IMG/VR virus record: IMGVR_UViG_3300025875_000002
Coordinates: 1 to 64,000 of that record
Reading direction: 5' to 3' (one strand)
Source of the DNA: a virus
Taxonomy: Duplodnaviria > Heunggongvirae > Uroviricota > Caudoviricetes
DNA: 64,000 bases
Shown here in pieces: positions 4,366 through 33,658 of this stretch; the stretch's first letter is position 1; each line of letters begins with the position of its first letter. A program made the position numbers and the translations under genes. The notes beneath the pieces are model-generated. The model worked only from the letters and a program-made list of their open reading frames with translations. It did no database searches and was not told where the DNA came from.

Positions 4366-6190
4366 ATTTGATGACTTTTTGTCTGTACTTGATGATTCTG
4401 AATTTGAAGAAATCCCGGTTGACATTGACACGTTCGTTGAAGACGAGCGTTTTCTTGGCAAGCGCAAGATGAAGCTTTCGCCGGTACAGCGTGAGTGTCT
4501 ACTTATGATGACACAGATTTATCGTAAGGACACACTAGACTCCTACCTAAGTGCAGAAGATGCACAGAAGCGATGGAACACTCTAAAGAACGAAATTATC
4601 CTACAGCTAGGCAAGGGTAGTGGTAAGGACGAAATGAGTGCTATGGCTATTGCCTACATTGTTTATCAGCTATTGTGTCTAAAGGACCCAGCCGCATACT
4701 ACAACAAGCCAGCCGGTGACAACATTGACATTATCAATGTTGCTATTAACGCCGAGCAGGCTTCTAACGTTTTCTTCAAGAAGTTCAGCAACTTCATTAC
4801 TGTTTCACCTTGGTTTGAGGATAAGTATGAGGCCAAGGCAGACCGCTCACCAATGAAGTCTAACCAGTTCAATTTTAACAAGAACGTTAACGTTTACTCC
4901 GGCCACTCTGAGCGTGAGGCTTGGGAAGGCTACAACCTTTTTGCAGCCGTACTTGACGAGATTGCCGCCTTCGCGCTAGAGTCAGCATCAACTCAGGGAA
5001 AGACCGCTGAGGCCGTCTGGAAGATGTATAGAGCTTCTGTCACCAGTCGTTTTGCAGAGTTCGGAAAGGTAATCAGTCTTTCCTTCCCCCGTTACAAGGG
5101 TGACTTCATCACTCAGCGTTACGATAAGGTCATTGCGTCAAAGCAGGTTGTCAAGCGCCGGGAAGTCTTGAAGATCGTTGAAGACTTGCCTGACGGAATC
5201 GCCGGTAATGAACTAGTGCTCGAATGGGACGAAGACCATATTGATGCATACACACAGCGGAAGGTTTACGCACTGCGCAGACCACCCTGGGATGTTAACC
5301 CTATTGCTCGCATTGAGCATTATGTATCTGACTTCGTTGACGACTATGCTGACTGCATGGGTCGTTACTGCTGCATGCCACCCGAGGCTGTTGACGCATT
5401 CTTCAAGGATCGTGACAGAATTGAGCAGGCATTCTCAGGTCAAGTAATTTCAAACGCAGTGGACAATGAAACTGGTGCGTGGACTGACGCTTGCGAACCG
5501 GACTCATCTAAGATATACTTTGTCCACGTTGACCTTGCACAAAAGCACGACCGTTGTGCAGTGTCTTTGGCCCACGTAGAAAAGTGGGAGAGGCGTCAAA
5601 TTAGTAACATAGGTAAGCTAGAGGGACCGGCGCCGGTTGTTTACGTGGACGCTATCCGTTACTGGCAGCCTACCAAGCAGAAAGAAGTTGACTTCGATAA
5701 GGTACGGGACTACATTGTATCTCTACAGCAGAGAGGCTATAATTTAAGACTAGTTACCTTCGACCAGTGGCGCAGTGAGGACATGAGAAAGTACCTTGCC
5801 AGCATCGGTATTCGTACTGACCTTCTTTCAGTTAAGAAGGAGCAGTACGTTGACTTTGCCGTTGTTCTCAACTCGGGCCGGTTGCACGGACCACTAGAAC
5901 CTCTTATTAGAGAGGAACTACTAGGACTAAGACTCTTCCCTAACGGAAAGATCGACCACCCAAGGCAGGGGTATAAGGACCTTTCCGACGCAACGGCTGG
6001 TGCTATCTTCAATGCAATTCGAAGAACTCCTCGGTCGGCAGACACAGAAATTGAAGTAAAGACAGTTAAAGACGTAAGAAAGGTTGCACGGAACGAACTA
6101 CCCAAGAAGACTGGTGTTATTGCTGCTCCTAAGAAGCAAATGCCACCGGAGCTTAAGGCTTTTCTAGAGAGTGTTCCAAGAATAATATGA
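4358..6190 (+). CDS. terL: terminase large subunit
   Basis: 610 aa; Walker A-like GKGSGKD, Walker B-like VLDEIAAF, C-terminal RNaseH-like nuclease motifs (VHVDLAQKHD). Confidence 0.7.
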   Translation: MSRFDDFLSVLDDSEFEEIPVDIDTFVEDERFLGKRKMKLSPVQRECLLMMTQIYRKDTLDSYLSAEDAQKRWNTLKNEIILQLGKGSGKDEMSAMAIAYIVYQLLCLKDPAAYYNKPAGDNIDIINVAINAEQASNVFFKKFSNFITVSPWFEDKYEAKADRSPMKSNQFNFNKNVNVYSGHSEREAWEGYNLFAAVLDEIAAFALESASTQGKTAEAVWKMYRASVTSRFAEFGKVISLSFPRYKGDFITQRYDKVIASKQVVKRREVLKIVEDLPDGIAGNELVLEWDEDHIDAYTQRKVYALRRPPWDVNPIARIEHYVSDFVDDYADCMGRYCCMPPEAVDAFFKDRDRIEQAFSGQVISNAVDNETGAWTDACEPDSSKIYFVHVDLAQKHDRCAVSLAHVEKWERRQISNIGKLEGPAPVVYVDAIRYWQPTKQKEVDFDKVRDYIVSLQQRGYNLRLVTFDQWRSEDMRKYLASIGIRTDLLSVKKEQYVDFAVVLNSGRLHGPLEPLIREELLGLRLFPNGKIDHPRQGYKDLSDATAGAIFNAIRRTPRSADTEIEVKTVKDVRKVARNELPKKTGVIAAPKKQMPPELKAFLESVPRII

Positions 6191-8704: not shown

Positions 8705-8778
8705 TGCAGGCGTAGCTTAGTGGCCTAAAGCTCCCCTCTCTAAAAGGGGGATCGTGAGTTCGACTCTCACCGCCCGCA
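8705..8778 (+). tRNA. tRNA with anticodon CUA (amber-reading suppressor-type); amino acid identity undetermined
   Basis: Clean cloverleaf: acceptor GCAGGCG, D GCTT/AAGC, anticodon stem CCCCT/AGGGG, loop CTCTAAA (U33, A37), T arm GTGAG-TTCGACT-CTCAC, short variable arm. Confidence 0.5.
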
Positions 8779-8779
8779 C

Positions 8780-10433: not shown

Positions 10434-10613
10434 GAGGCATGTAGTTTAATGGCAGAACAGCCCGGGTCTACTTTGCGGAATCGCGCGGTTTCGTAAGATC
10501 CCTCTAAATGCACATGAGGCTAAATAAGGTGCAGCCTGGGGCAGTATACCCTCACCCTGATAAGGTGTTGAAAGGTTAGCTGGTACCACGTTGGTTCAAA
10601 TCCAACCTGCCTC
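10434..10613 (+). tRNA. tRNA-like gene with ~110-nt internal insertion (interrupted tRNA or pseudo-tRNA)
   Basis: Canonical 5 prime half GAGGCAT-GTAGTTTAATGGCAGAACA and canonical 3 prime GTTGG-TTCAAAT-CCAAC-CTGCCTC-A whose acceptor strands pair; second alternative 5 prime acceptor GGGGCAG at 10528 also pairs with same 3 prime strand. Confidence 0.35.
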
Positions 10614-10665
10614 ACGCAAATCCCTAGGGACTAATCGTAACAAACTCGACTAGTTAGGACGTGCA

Positions 10666-11109: not shown

Positions 11110-11205
11110 GCACGGTTGAAGAACGGTTCGAATCCGTCTCGTAGTGTAATGGTAGCACGCAGCCTTAAGGTAAGTGCAGGTTCGAATCCTGTCCGGTCCA
11201 CTTTG
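11110..11205 (+). other. degenerate tRNA-like element(s)
   Basis: Two T-arm motifs (ACGG-TTCGAAT-CCGT; GCAGG-TTCGAAT-CCTGT) and a D-arm-like GTAGTGTAATGGTAGCAC but no complete cloverleaf; loop CTTAAGG would give anticodon UAA if real. Confidence 0.25.
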
Positions 11206-11708: not shown

Positions 11709-11797
11709 TGGAAGTACAAGCCGAATGCTGGCCGACGGCATCGCACTTGAAATGCGACGAGGATAAAACCCTTGTGGGTTCGAACCCCACTGCTTCC
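11709..11797 (+). tRNA. tRNA-Ser(UGA), class II long variable arm
   Basis: Acceptor GGAAGTA/TGCTTCC, anticodon stem TCGCA/TGCGA loop CTTGAAA, long variable arm, T arm GTGGG-TTCGAAC-CCCAC. Confidence 0.6.
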
Positions 11798-15423: not shown

Positions 15424-15504
15424 GGGTCTAACGCCAAACGGTCAGGCATTGGATTGTGACTCCATGAGTATATCCCACAGAGGGTTCGACTCCCTCTAGA
15501 CCCT
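15424..15504 (+). tRNA. tRNA-like, 81 nt, possible anticodon GUG (His?) with extended variable region
   Basis: Perfect acceptor GGGTCTA/TAGACCC, T arm GAGGG-TTCGACT-CCCTC; internal arms noncanonical. Confidence 0.35.
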
Positions 15505-22744: not shown

Positions 22745-23260
22745 GAGCAGAAATGCTCTCATGAGTGTGCGCCGAAGCGGGAGAGTCGGGGGTGGCTGTA
22801 ACCCATTTGCAATTGCTGAGTGGGTTCGAATCCTATCACACTTACGTAAGGTTCCGATATTCGAATAGGAGCCTAGGCAGAGATAAGCCCTTGTGTAAGC
22901 GGGGTCGGCACCCGTCACCGGCAGTCGTCGGTGGTTTCTGGCAACAGCACAAGCAAACTGTTAGTGAAGTTAGGCCGATGAAACTGCTAACCCATTTTAG
23001 CCCGCTAGTCCAACGGTGATATTGGACGACCAGTGTCTGATGCCCCAACGGTTCGGGGCGGCGGTTGTAACCCGTTGTATTCATCAACTCAGTTCGATTC
23101 TGAGCAGGCGCACTACCCCCGGTCCCAAGGGGAATGACTAAGTATCGGGCACGTATTCTCGTGGGCTAACTGTTGGTAGTTAGAATGGTCCGTTAAACCA
23201 TTACTCCGTAGGTTCGATCCCAGCTGTGAGAGCATTACTTAGAGTGACATTTCTATCCTT
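22745..23260 (+). ncRNA. ORF-free, promoter-driven structured RNA locus with tRNA-like modules (function unknown)
   Basis: ~500 nt without credible ORF; T-arm-like motifs GGGTTCGAATCC, CAGTTCGATTCTGAG, AGGTTCGATCC; repeated TGTAACCC; multiple hairpins; 82-nt tRNA-like element 22762..22843 with pairing termini GAGTGTG/CACACTT. Confidence 0.35.
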
Positions 23261-26650: not shown

Positions 26651-26723
26651 GCCGCAATAGTTCAGTGGATAGAGCAGGACTTTCCTAAAGTCAAGGTCGG
26701 GGGTTCGAATCCCTCTTGTGGCA
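26651..26723 (+). tRNA. tRNA-Arg(CCU), CCA encoded
   Basis: Acceptor GCCGCAA/TTGTGGC, D GTTC/GAGC-type, anticodon loop TTCCTAA, T arm GGGGG-TTCGAAT-CCCTC, followed by CCA. Confidence 0.6.
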
Positions 26724-26816
26724 CCAACCTGAGGAAAGCTCAGGAGAGCCCGGTTCCGAGGCCGAATATCGGAACAACACTTGACATTGTAATGTTTATC
26801 ATGTATAGTACATGAT

Positions 26817-27158
26817 ATGCCGAATGTTAGAGGAACAAAGCACCGCGTCAAAGCAAAGGGTGAAGCTAACAAGTCTCGTAAGGAGCTGGCTGTATGGTCA
26901 GATTATAGACTAACTTTGGCTGAATATGAAGCTTTGCTCGCAAATGGTTGTTCGATTTGTGGTTCGATGGAAAATCTTTGTGTGGACCATGATCATAAAT
27001 GTTGTCCAAGGGTTAACCCAGCGACAGGAAAGAGAACGAACAGGACTTGCGGACAGTGCATCCGTGGTGTACTATGTAGGAGACACAACTTGGCGGAAGG
27101 ACACCTTAACGGTGATCTTGCTGAGGTACAAGCTTTGTTAGATTATCTAACAAGATAA
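26817..27158 (+). CDS. HNH endonuclease, Endonuclease VII-like
   Basis: DHDHKCCP...CGQCIRGVLCRRHN signature. Confidence 0.8.
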   Translation: MPNVRGTKHRVKAKGEANKSRKELAVWSDYRLTLAEYEALLANGCSICGSMENLCVDHDHKCCPRVNPATGKRTNRTCGQCIRGVLCRRHNLAEGHLNGDLAEVQALLDYLTR

Positions 27159-27159
27159 A

Positions 27160-27900
27160 AGTAAATGAGGTATGGCTCAATAAGCTATGGTGACATAGTG
27201 AAAGGCAGACTGGTTGTCTGTCGCCCAGCAATGGGTAGTCCATACAAAGCATTGGTCGTTGAGCAATCGGACACCCCGGTTGCAGCGATGTGAGCGTCCC
27301 AGGCGAATGGTCGAATGACTGTAGCCACCCGGCAGGGTAAGACGGGGTTCTACGTAAGCATCACGTTCGATAATGCGAGGAAAGATAGTCCGAGACCGCA
27401 ATCAAGGGCGCTTTCCATGAAGGTTAAGTAGCTGGACCGGCAGGTTCGTGAAAGACTAGAGATTTGAGTAGCCCCGCAAGGCGAAAGATATTGAGGCGTG
27501 TAGTATTCTTAGGCTCAAAAGGTCTCGGAACTACGCGGAGAAGCACGTCTCTCACCACATACCCACCCCGGTTAGGGGACTGTATATTGGAATACAAATT
27601 CAAATAAGCAAAAGACTTCTCCTGTCGTAAAGCAAAAGTGCCTTAATGGCTGACCTTCGGGAATCAGCCCACCTAAAAGCTCGCAAGGCCAAGGGTGTTC
27701 GTGTACAAGTAGTGCAGTGAAGGGGTTTAGCGGCCCTTACACGAATCGAAAGTAGCGGAGTAGCTCTACGTCATGAAGAGTGATCAGCTATACTGATCAG
27801 GCACGGCAGGTCCGGTAGGGATACCGGGGAAAGGTTGGGAAACAATAATCCAACTAAAGCCTGTCACGGGAGGGTGAATTCTAAGCCCTCCCAAATTTTA
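27160..27900 (+). ncRNA. large ORF-free, highly structured RNA candidate (~740 nt); identity unresolved (GOLLD/ROOL-like phage RNA or degenerate ribozyme-like element)
   Basis: No credible ORF on either strand; many hairpins incl. GNRA/UUCG-type loops; long-range complementarity AGTCCGAGACC (27387-97) with GGTCTCGGAACT (27521-32); flanked by tRNAs. Confidence 0.4.
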
Positions 27901-27901
27901 T

Positions 27902-27975
27902 GGTGGCAGACAAGCAAGGCTGCTGAAAGAGTCTCATAATCTCTTGTATGCCGGGTTCGATTCCCGGTGCCACTA
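27902..27975 (+). tRNA. tRNA-Met/fMet(CAU)-like, D arm noncanonical
   Basis: Acceptor GGTGGCA/TGCCACT, anticodon loop CTCATAA, T arm CCGGG-TTCGATT-CCCGG. Confidence 0.35.
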
Positions 27976-28083
27976 CTAGCGCGGATGGAGAAAAGGTGTC
28001 TCGCCAGCCTCATAAGCTGGAAATCAGGCTGGTCGGAGCAGCCCCGCGCTCCCACGTATTGGAACAACAGAAAGGCAATCCTA

Positions 28084-28316
28084 TGGAGCACGTTAAGGAA
28101 ATTCTTGCCGGTTTGGCAGTTTTTATTGTTGTTCTAGCTATTGTTGCTGGCATCTTTTTGGTTCCAACAAAGATTGCCCATGAGAACAATCAGAAGCAGC
28201 AGCATATGAATGAGATTTGTATTGCTAAGGGCTACATTGGTTGGAGTGACCAGCGGACCGTTCGTGACGGACCTGACCTCCCGGCCGGGTGTGTAAAGGA
28301 GAAGAGTGATAACTAA
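28084..28316 (+). CDS. small membrane protein
   Basis: ATG after tRNA; TM helix LAVFIVVLAIVAGIFLV. Confidence 0.35.
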
Positions 28317-29282: not shown

Positions 29283-29591
29283 ATAACCTGAGGAGGTGAC
29301 TAAATTCGTATGGCATCATCACCATCCGGCTTGAAGGGCAACCCAGCCTCCAAGCGTATGAGCAACGCCCACCGCAAGGCATACCGCGCGGCACTATGGG
29401 CAAAGCAGAAGAAGCGTGCAGCAGCGCGTCAGGCAAAGCAGGACGCAGCACACGCCGCAAAGCAGAGGTGAGTATGGCGGGGTTGACAAGTTCAACCCCG
29501 CCTGCTACACTTAACATGGCAGATTGGCCGAGGGAAGGTACGCGCCTGCAAAGCGTTGTCACACGGGTTCGTAACCCGTATCTGCCTCCAC

Positions 29592-29657
29592 GCTCTCAGT
29601 AAGGAACAGAACGATCTTCCGAAGTTCGTGATCAGGGTTCGATTCCCTGTGAGAGCA
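29592..29657 (+). other. 66-nt tRNA-like element lacking a D arm
   Basis: Perfect acceptor GCTCTCA/TGAGAGC, T arm CAGGG-TTCGATT-CCCTG, single central hairpin. Confidence 0.3.
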
Positions 29658-29765
29658 CGGGGCCGGTTGTGCGGCCAACTAATATGACTCTGATTCTATT
29701 GGGATTGGGTTGGAGTCGAATAGGTGAGATATAGTAGCCCAATTGAGGCTCACCTACACAACCTA

Positions 29766-33422: not shown

Positions 33423-33658
33423 TCGTAGTTCAGTGGGGGTTCGACTCCTCATGCGGCCGCAATTCTCCGGGAAGGCTGAACTAGCAATGGGCGTTAAGTG
33501 TCAAGGGTTGCACGTCGGTGTTGCATACCGAAAGATAGGGTTCAACTCCCTCACTGTCCACACCTAGAGGAAACCAGGGACGCTTGGTGAAATCGAAAGT
33601 CAGCCGGATGGAGGCTGAGAGCATAAGGAGACCTAATGGTTGGTCCCACCATCGCAAT

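Follow-up and report, generated by a model that had tools for sequence, protein, structure and literature searches.

The stretch of DNA analysed here (the window) comprises 64,000 nt of a Caudoviricetes phage, positions 1 to 64,000 of IMG/VR record IMGVR_UViG_3300025875_000002. Within its tRNA array, a gene for an Endonuclease VII/HNH-type nuclease (26817-27158), a segment of about 727 nt without any credible open reading frame (ORF; 27167-27893, + strand) and a tRNA-like cloverleaf (27901-27975) follow one another. The best explanation of the locus as a whole, to which we attribute a probability of about 0.93, is that 27167-27893 (+) represents a complete GOLLD RNA gene carried in the tRNA array of an uncultured phage. 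GOLLD RNAs are among the largest bacterial or phage non-coding RNAs. An earlier note on this DNA, made from the sequence alone, had proposed a large structured phage RNA between 27160 and 27900, and these coordinates match almost exactly those of the full-length gene.

Identification of the GOLLD gene and its nearest relative

The whole window was scanned with Rfam 15 at the gathering threshold, and GOLLD was the sole match found besides tRNA and transfer-messenger RNA (tmRNA). The match to RF02032, located at 27491-27888 (+), reached 203.5 bits (E 5.6e-56), well above the curated GOLLD gathering score of 150 bits, and was untruncated over model positions 1-416 of 416, with few non-canonical pairs in the covariance-model alignment. 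The Rfam model covers the conserved 3' region of the class only, and the match delimits the 3' domain of the gene. Moreover, the score exceeded those of many catalogued GOLLDs scanned in this analysis. The earlier note had suspected kinship with GOLLD or ROOL, either as a divergent member of such a class or as a new one. Kinship with GOLLD was borne out, and the RNA is an ordinary GOLLD, neither a divergent member nor a new class, while no match to ROOL was obtained in the window at the gathering score or in 27100-28100 at E values up to 1. With permissive settings (E up to 1), nothing beyond GOLLD and a weak tRNA-like match was obtained in 27100-28100. Altogether, the locus combines the traits of the class, namely a 3' region scoring at least 150 bits, a structured 5' domain, a total length in the range of about 700-830 nt and a setting among phage tRNAs. 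Knowledge of the GOLLD class is unchanged by this locus, which a routine Rfam scan assigns to the family at once; what it adds is a compact member (~727 nt), with a linker that contains no tRNA, from an uncultured lineage distantly related to Streptomyces phages.

Folding of the + strand yielded -250.3 kcal/mol (z -3.56), and none of 20 dinucleotide shuffles was equally stable; the fold of the - strand was no better than its shuffles (z -1.20). The six hairpins listed in the earlier note are all present in the sequence. Five of them (27649-70, 27781-99, 27811-26, 27833-53, and 27866-93) correspond to consensus helices of the Rfam GOLLD model, and the sixth (27205-19) is the covarying helix P3 of the 5' domain described below. 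The GNRA and UUCG-type loops that had been reported were also found, as GUGA at 27190-93, GCAA at 27228-31, GGGA at 27818-21 and UUCG at 27656-59.

The nearest relative of the window RNA, designated L010, is encoded in IMG/VR contig IMGVR_UViG_3300025875_000001 (134.8 kb), and its GOLLD is 77.6% identical to that of the window over positions 3-723. The consensus fold of the two RNAs contains 190 pairs, of which 31 are doubly compensated and one is lost to an alignment gap, a count biased in favour of the structure since the alifold structure was optimised on both sequences. L010 shares with the window both the 5' and 3' domains and the succession of tRNA-Arg(tct), tRNA-Lys(ctt), GOLLD, two CAU tRNA-like elements and tRNA-Cys. 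It differs from the window by an extra hairpin in the 5' domain and by the 31 base pairs changed on both sides, and between tRNA-Lys and GOLLD it lacks both tRNA-Arg(cct) and the HNH gene (26651-27158 in the window, corresponding to L010 6575-6600). The indels between the two sequences measure 1, 2 or 8 nt, so that no reading frame is kept, and the pattern of substitutions is that of a structured RNA under selection, reflecting neither coding nor decay.

This comparison bears on a rival explanation, according to which the window carries a decaying, non-functional GOLLD remnant in its tRNA array. The HNH gene inserted directly upstream and the atypical character of both adjacent tRNA-like genes could be taken as signs of such erosion. 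However, the match extends over the whole model with a score among the higher ones in this analysis, and the 31 doubly changed pairs have remained paired in the face of 22% divergence from L010, with a single pair lost to a gap. Besides, the conserved loops and motifs are all intact, and the window GOLLD sequence was found 100% identical in three other, independent metagenome assemblies. Samples that contain this phage include JGI 3300004186 and 3300004213 and ENA ERZ27293392. We therefore consider a decaying remnant improbable, and a complete GOLLD gene the better account of these observations.

The 5' domain and its covariation

The region upstream of the Rfam match, 27167-27490 (+; 324 nt), constitutes the GOLLD 5' domain, as defined by a multiple alignment (A1) and an nhmmer profile. 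Homologs were collected with conserved 3'-domain strings, using two pattern scans of IMG/VR (14 and 23 loci) and one scan of GTDB (4 loci). Among the 35 loci drawn from IMG/VR or from annotated phage records, 25 reached the GOLLD gathering score, as did 16 of 17 loci of the window's subtype (L019-L039 as scanned). In 20 non-identical loci with an Rfam-positive GOLLD, the ~335 nt upstream align over their full length with the 5' half of the window RNA. These homologs come from mycobacteriophages, Mycobacterium, Weissella and IMG/VR phage contigs, the member from Weissella paramesenteroides being listed as both L036 and L046, and their homology to the 5' half assigns the window RNA to an Actinomycetota/Lactobacillales subtype. 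Homology with all relatives starts at 27167 (GAGGUAUGG). The motifs common to the aligned 5' domains are GGYAUGGCYC-AUAAG, GUGAAAGG, CCAUGCAA, GGCGAAU, GGAAGGAAC..AGUCYGAG, AAGGGCGG..UCCAUGA and GAGUAG-CCCGCNAGGCGAAAG; a search with the pattern CGCAAGNCGAAAGANAT..TGAGGNGTG recovered L010 only.

Covariation in alignment A1 (20 sequences) was evaluated for 36 pairs in eight helices, restricting the test to helices aligned reliably by MAFFT. These positions were paired in 93.4% of cases against 73.4% in column shuffles, and double (compensatory) changes were observed at 28 of the 36 pairs. None of 500 shuffles reached any of five measures, and slid controls were 33-42% paired. The variable blocks between anchors were treated by anchored block folding, and they fold into same-shaped hairpins in every sequence. 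The central part of the domain (27246-27371), which lies outside the A1 pair count, is supported by these per-sequence folds of the same shape and by the pairwise comparison with L010. Two of the checks proposed in the earlier note, an Rfam scan and a covariation analysis, turned out in favour of a GOLLD RNA, and both of its domains hold their helices via compensatory substitutions. The comparison also outlines, with support from covariation, the 5' domain of the Actinomycetota/Lactobacillales type, a region outside the Rfam model.

The domain opens with a cloverleaf-shaped four-way junction (27170-27245, +; minimum free energy z -3.9) supported by per-helix covariation. Its helices are P1 (27170-75 / 27240-45), P2 (27184-99, with the GUGA loop), P3 (27204-22) and P4 (27224-35, with the GCAA loop), and the fold recurs in four relatives. 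This opening region of 76 nt is tRNA-sized and has a cloverleaf topology. In the GenBank record of mycobacteriophage PegLeg, a second 'tRNA-Asn' is annotated exactly over the homologous stretch (L016 2194-2265), a call supported by neither ARAGORN nor Rfam. At the very 5' end, 27167-69 covaries with 27176-78, and the six bases lying between them covary with 27240-45 as part of P1. These two sets of pairs are not simply nested; they may represent a tight pseudoknot, conformers that alternate, or a contact between molecules. A long-range pairing suggested by RNAalifold between A1 columns 91-95 and 411-415 was rejected, since it is incompatible both with P1, which covaries, and with the helix that opens the Rfam model.

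Further downstream, a core conserved across A1, AAUGCGAGGAAAGAUAGUCCGAG...GGGC (27372-27409, +), contains a local helix (27388-91 / 27406-09 plus 27394-95 / 27402-03) that is 98% paired, with four covarying pairs. The core motif AAUGCGAG is common to the window, to Nanosmite and to env-38, an 833-nt GOLLD that forms a protein-free 14-mer cage of D7 symmetry by cryo-EM (PDB 9MEE; PMC12286853). At the end of the domain, the alignment shows a conserved GGCGAAAGAU element (27480-27489, +), which may be the equivalent of the conserved GAAA loop L11a described for env-38 (PMC12286853).

The earlier note had also pointed to a long-range complementarity with a single bulge between 27387-97 and 27521-32. 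The complementarity is real in this sequence, where 11 of 11 pairs can form around the bulge, but it is not conserved as a helix in the 20 homologs and was rejected. The middle pairs are kept by no more than 9-13 of the 20 homologs, the 3' strand (CGGAAC) never compensates, and where the 5' strand changes it is the local partner 27402-09 that restores pairing. The outer pairs persist because the motifs AGUCYG and CGGAACU are both conserved, and both strands are already engaged in covarying local helices.

The nhmmer profile of the 5' domain found loci outside its build set, namely L045 from an Actinomycetota metagenome-assembled genome (2.6e-22) and L044 from Mycobacterium sp. (4.7e-13), and did not detect the 5' domains of env-38 and of the phiCbK type. 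When the 5' half was compared with INPHARED by BLAST, the sole match was to cluster M phages, over 40 nt (E 0.09). The failure of the profile to reach env-38, the near absence of BLAST similarity to catalogued phages and the lack of an Rfam match in the 5' half would be expected if the phage encoded a large structured RNA of a new class, unrelated or only superficially similar to GOLLD and ROOL. Against this, the 3' half gives a complete GOLLD match, and in more than 20 loci the 5' half, homologous from one locus to the next, directly adjoins an Rfam-positive 3' domain. The GOLLD family is described as having a variable 5' region (PMC12286853), and Rfam models the 3' region only, which leaves a new class with a very low probability.

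Two further explanations fare no better. A self-splicing intron or RNase P-like ribozyme, favoured only by the way in which AAUGCGAGGAAAGAUAGUCCG and GUGAAAGACUAGAG visually recall core elements of group I introns or RNase P, as the earlier note had pointed out, has hardly any likelihood, since group I, group II and RNase P models gave no match in 27100-28100 at E up to 1 with permissive filters, no split gene flanks the locus, and the two strings belong to the conserved or structural elements of the GOLLD 5' domain, AAUGCGAGGAAAGAUAGUCCG being a conserved core motif at 27372-27409.

A protein-coding region hidden by sequencing errors or stop-codon recoding might be suspected from the suppressor-like tRNA with anticodon CUA at 8706-8779 ('Pyl' according to ARAGORN; 58.5 bits on the Rfam tRNA model, amber-suppressor type) and from several 'hypothetical protein' annotations over the homologous region in GenBank records of mycobacteriophages. 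In agreement with the earlier note, no credible ORF was found: the longest ones overlapping 27160-27900 encode 74 aa (-), 59 aa (-) and 47 aa, and the six longest matched no PHROG family. A recoding test, run because of the tRNA(CUA), gave no window-wide sign that TAG, TGA or TAA is read as sense, with the longest + strand ORF still at ~720 aa and ORF gains alike on the non-coding strand. Furthermore, identical sequences in three other assemblies argue against a sequencing error, the indels relative to L010 are not multiples of three, and the substitutions track base-pairing over codon structure, all of which makes hidden coding extremely unlikely.

Many deposited mycobacteriophage genomes carry small 'hypothetical protein' coding sequences over the GOLLD region and leave the RNA unannotated. 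Such coding sequences are probably mis-annotations, and in the window the region should read as a non-coding RNA (GOLLD), rather than being left blank or labelled as a small 'hypothetical protein'.

Flanking genes, RNA processing and phage context

The tRNA-like cloverleaf at 27901-27975 (+) begins 12 nt past the GOLLD 3' end, and the last GOLLD helix ends at 27892. The cloverleaf obtained 24.2 bits on the Rfam tRNA-Sec model (E 0.033), under the gathering score of 47, and folds with a minimum free energy of -27 kcal/mol (z -2.5). Its acceptor stem measures 7 bp, its T arm (GGUUCGAUUCC) is canonical, and its anticodon loop, UCUCAUAAU, is 9 nt long and centred on CAU. Having neither a score at the gathering level nor an ARAGORN call, nor the 7-nt anticodon loop of a tRNA, the element is described here as tRNA-like and not as a tRNA. 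L010 has a counterpart at 5764-5836 (-), following its own GOLLD and with a non-canonical T loop, and the two acceptor stems differ by compensatory changes (GGUGGCA/UGCCACU in the window versus GGCCCCA/UGGGGCU in L010). A second gene of this kind with a CAU anticodon, identified as tRNA-Met by ARAGORN, lies at 27978-28054 (+); it has an atypical T loop (GUCGGAG) and gave no match to the Rfam tRNA model. A tandem pair of CAU-type tRNA-like genes thus follows GOLLD in both the window and L010.

The proximity of a tRNA to the 3' end is shared by many relatives. Ten related loci have a tRNA whose start lies 7-10 nt past the Rfam GOLLD 3' end, the distance being 7 nt in L022 and L033, 8 nt in L023, L030, L034, L035 and L039, 9 nt in PegLeg, and 10 nt in Nanosmite and Rey. 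A tRNA or tRNA-like element starts 7-13 nt after GOLLD in most loci of the window's subtype. RNase P recognises the acceptor/T-arm stack of tRNA-like substrates, and the start of such an element just past GOLLD suggests that RNase P generates the GOLLD 3' end. Relatives also have a tRNA that terminates a few nucleotides ahead of the GOLLD start. In the window this upstream place is taken by the HNH mRNA, so the GOLLD 5' end may be cut by another nuclease or stay fused to the upstream transcript.

A near-consensus, sigma-70-like promoter (TTGACA-17-TATAGT, 11/12) is located at 26781-26809 (+), and no other promoter-like site was seen on the + strand between it and 27167. Its end and the ATG of the HNH gene are 8 nt apart, which implies a leaderless or nearly leaderless HNH mRNA. 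Leaderless mRNAs are a habit of actinobacteria. The HNH gene (26817-27158, +), treated here as context outside the GOLLD RNA, encodes 113 aa with a match to PF02945 (1.5e-10), so that the flanks described in the earlier note, an Endonuclease VII-like HNH gene and tRNAs on either side, are confirmed. Since L010 has the same gene order with no HNH gene, the nuclease gene is a probable insertion, which suggests that a mobile nuclease gene entered between the tRNAs of the array and GOLLD.

GOLLD has been reported together with a tRNA array and an HNH endonuclease in Mycobacterium (PMC6582537), and the three also occur together in PegLeg, Nanosmite and Rey. Cluster M-type mycobacteriophages (PegLeg, Bongo, Rey and Nanosmite) and Mycobacterium arrays carry GOLLDs of the same 5'-domain subtype as the window, with the P1-P4 start and the GGAAGGAAC..AGUCYGAG core, in a similar setting of tRNA arrays, HNH genes and tmRNA, with a tRNA 9-10 nt after the 3' end. 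The mycobacteriophage GOLLDs differ from the window in that DNA identity is ~66% and confined to the 3' domain, and their host phages measure ~80 kb. Presence of GOLLD in Mycobacterium tRNA arrays was also reportedly described by Morgado et al. in 2020 (cited in PMC12990946).

All 38 tRNA genes of the window are encoded on the + strand, as is a tmRNA, and tRNAs lie on both sides of GOLLD. The tRNA count of the array is uncertain, since ARAGORN and Rfam disagree: tRNAs at 10538-10614, 11135-11200, 11711-11797, 15424-15504 and 33489-33560 reached the Rfam gathering score and were not called by ARAGORN, and ARAGORN calls such as 22761-22845, 23033-23113 and 29590-29658 are missing from the Rfam list. 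The phage tmRNA (29767-30075; 104 bits), with the tag peptide ADYDVVAEAEAILAEASLISA, lies 1.9 kb downstream of GOLLD, and the two genes also occur together in cluster M mycobacteriophages and several IMG/VR relatives. With regard to the phage itself, an rIIA-like protein is 38% identical to proteins of ~133-kb Streptomyces phages, and another protein combines a transglycosylase (Rpf-type) with an M23 peptidase. A megablast search of 24 kb of the window against INPHARED gave tRNA matches only, with no nucleotide-level relative. The phage-type genes together with this lack of an INPHARED relative indicate an uncultured phage as the source, probably of an actinobacterium, and the phage is distantly related to the ~133-kb Streptomyces phages.

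Predicted cage contacts and a working model

In the env-38 cage, the 5' domains form the caps and the 3' domains form the rings (PMC12286853). Published contact residues of the env-38 3' domain (supplement of PMC12286853) were mapped to the window by local alignment, limiting the mapping to the 3' domain and leaving 5'-domain contacts aside. The loop CUCAAAAGG (L14; 27514-27522, +) contains an A-run that aligns with A447/A448 of env-38, the donors of the inter-subunit A-minor bridge B6 (PMC12286853). The J13/15 motif AAGCAAAAG (27606-27614, +) has a GC that can pair with the loop CGCAA (27681-85) of its partner, the L20 hairpin GCU-CGCAA-GGC (27679-27689, +). The resulting GC:GC kissing pair, 27608-09 with 27682-83, would correspond, at the level of sequence, to bridge B7, the published pseudoknot, and env-38 carries GA:UC at both kissing pairs, which gives a compensatory pattern relative to the GC:GC of the window. 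The P21 region (27711-27733, +), placed by alignment only, comprises AGUGCAG (27711-17) and the loop UUUAGCGG (27726-33). Both of its loops contain a GC dinucleotide, and in env-38 such dinucleotides form the symmetric kissing loops B8 and B9 between half-shells (PMC12286853).

Between L14 and J13/15 lies a variable linker of ~60 nt (27545-27605, +), a low-confidence, unpaired stretch of the Rfam alignment. Neither ARAGORN nor the Rfam scans called a tRNA inside it, whereas relatives, Rey-type members among them, hold a nested tRNA in the linker. The linker of env-38, which has a different content, is disordered and points inward within the cage (PMC12286853). Near the 3' end, the hairpin CCGGUA-GGGA-UACCGG (27811-27827, +), with its GNRA-type loop, occupies the site of the env-38 bridge B10 loop, and GGGA is kept in 23 subfamily members aligning across this region. 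A tetraloop/receptor contact between the two planes, L24-P21'', is reported for the Streptococcus agalactiae GOLLD (PMC12990946), and the GGGA loop would fit a contact of this kind. The last GOLLD helix extends into a 3'-terminal hairpin, GGGAGGG-UGAAUUCUAAG-CCCUCCC (27868-27892, +). As the mapped determinants are present, the RNA appears to keep the requirements of the ring and equatorial contacts.

Among the solved structures, env-38 therefore resembles the window in its 3' domain, A-rich L14 loop, L20:J13/15 kissing pair and GC dinucleotides of the P21 loops, and it also adjoins a tRNA-Met. Its 5' domain is ~90 nt longer and is the one missed by the subfamily profile. The S. agalactiae GOLLD is a 700-nt RNA forming a dodecamer (PDB 9L0R), according to PMC12990946, which relates GOLLD stoichiometry to the peripheral helices that occur. 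By that description, it resembles the window in length (700 vs about 727 nt) and in its Lactobacillales-type lineage; the same paper reports it without P21b, and the window has one P21-region hairpin (27720-39). ROOL is likewise a large phage- or plasmid-associated RNA, often near tRNAs, that forms an RNA-only cage (PMC12286853), but its sequence and secondary structure are unrelated to those of the window RNA, which is not a member of that class.

Taken together, these features are compatible with a working model of a cage-forming, tRNA-linked RNA of the lytic phase. A polycistronic transcript would start at the promoter at 26781-26809 and run through the HNH gene, GOLLD and the downstream tRNA-like elements, and RNase P would cut at the 5' end of the cloverleaf, at ~27901, freeing the GOLLD 3' end. 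The 5' and 3' domains would then fold separately, and protomers may assemble without protein into a closed, dihedrally symmetric cage, by analogy with the solved GOLLDs. Candidate assembly contacts are the A-rich loop at 27514-22, the GC:GC kissing pair (27608-09/27682-83), the GC loops of P21 and the GNRA loop at 27818-21. Encapsulating or storing tRNAs or other macromolecules has been proposed as a role of GOLLD (PMC12286853, PMC12990946). Because GOLLD is constantly linked to phage tRNA genes, its most likely role here would concern the handling of tRNA or of the machinery of translation in lytic growth.

Several points weigh against this interpretation. To our knowledge, no function has been established for any GOLLD, and we infer the transcript ends and the processing at this locus from sequence features. 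The env-38 5' domain shares with the window only short motifs such as AAUGCGAG, and the lack of detectable profile similarity between the two domains means that the cap contacts are not transferable. The env-38 sequence was taken from a PDF and misses 17 nt, so that offsets were fitted regionally and the contact mapping is local and approximate. In addition, the A-minor donors of env-38 bridge B10 (a CAAAAG loop) are replaced by GGGA in the window. With assemblies of 12 (700 nt) and 14 protomers (833 nt) both published, the stoichiometry of the window RNA cannot be predicted.

A more speculative suggestion, which we consider doubtful, is that GOLLD and the non-canonical cloverleaf form a fixed unit in the lineage of the window and L010. 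The cloverleaf would possibly be a dedicated partner or cargo of the cage, and the compact variant free of linker tRNA would perhaps differ in stoichiometry or function from the two solved GOLLDs. The features behind this suggestion are the 9-nt CAU-centred loop and the compensating acceptor stem of the cloverleaf, the tRNA-sized, cloverleaf-shaped junction that opens the 5' domain, and the covarying, possibly pseudoknotted pairs at the 5' terminus.

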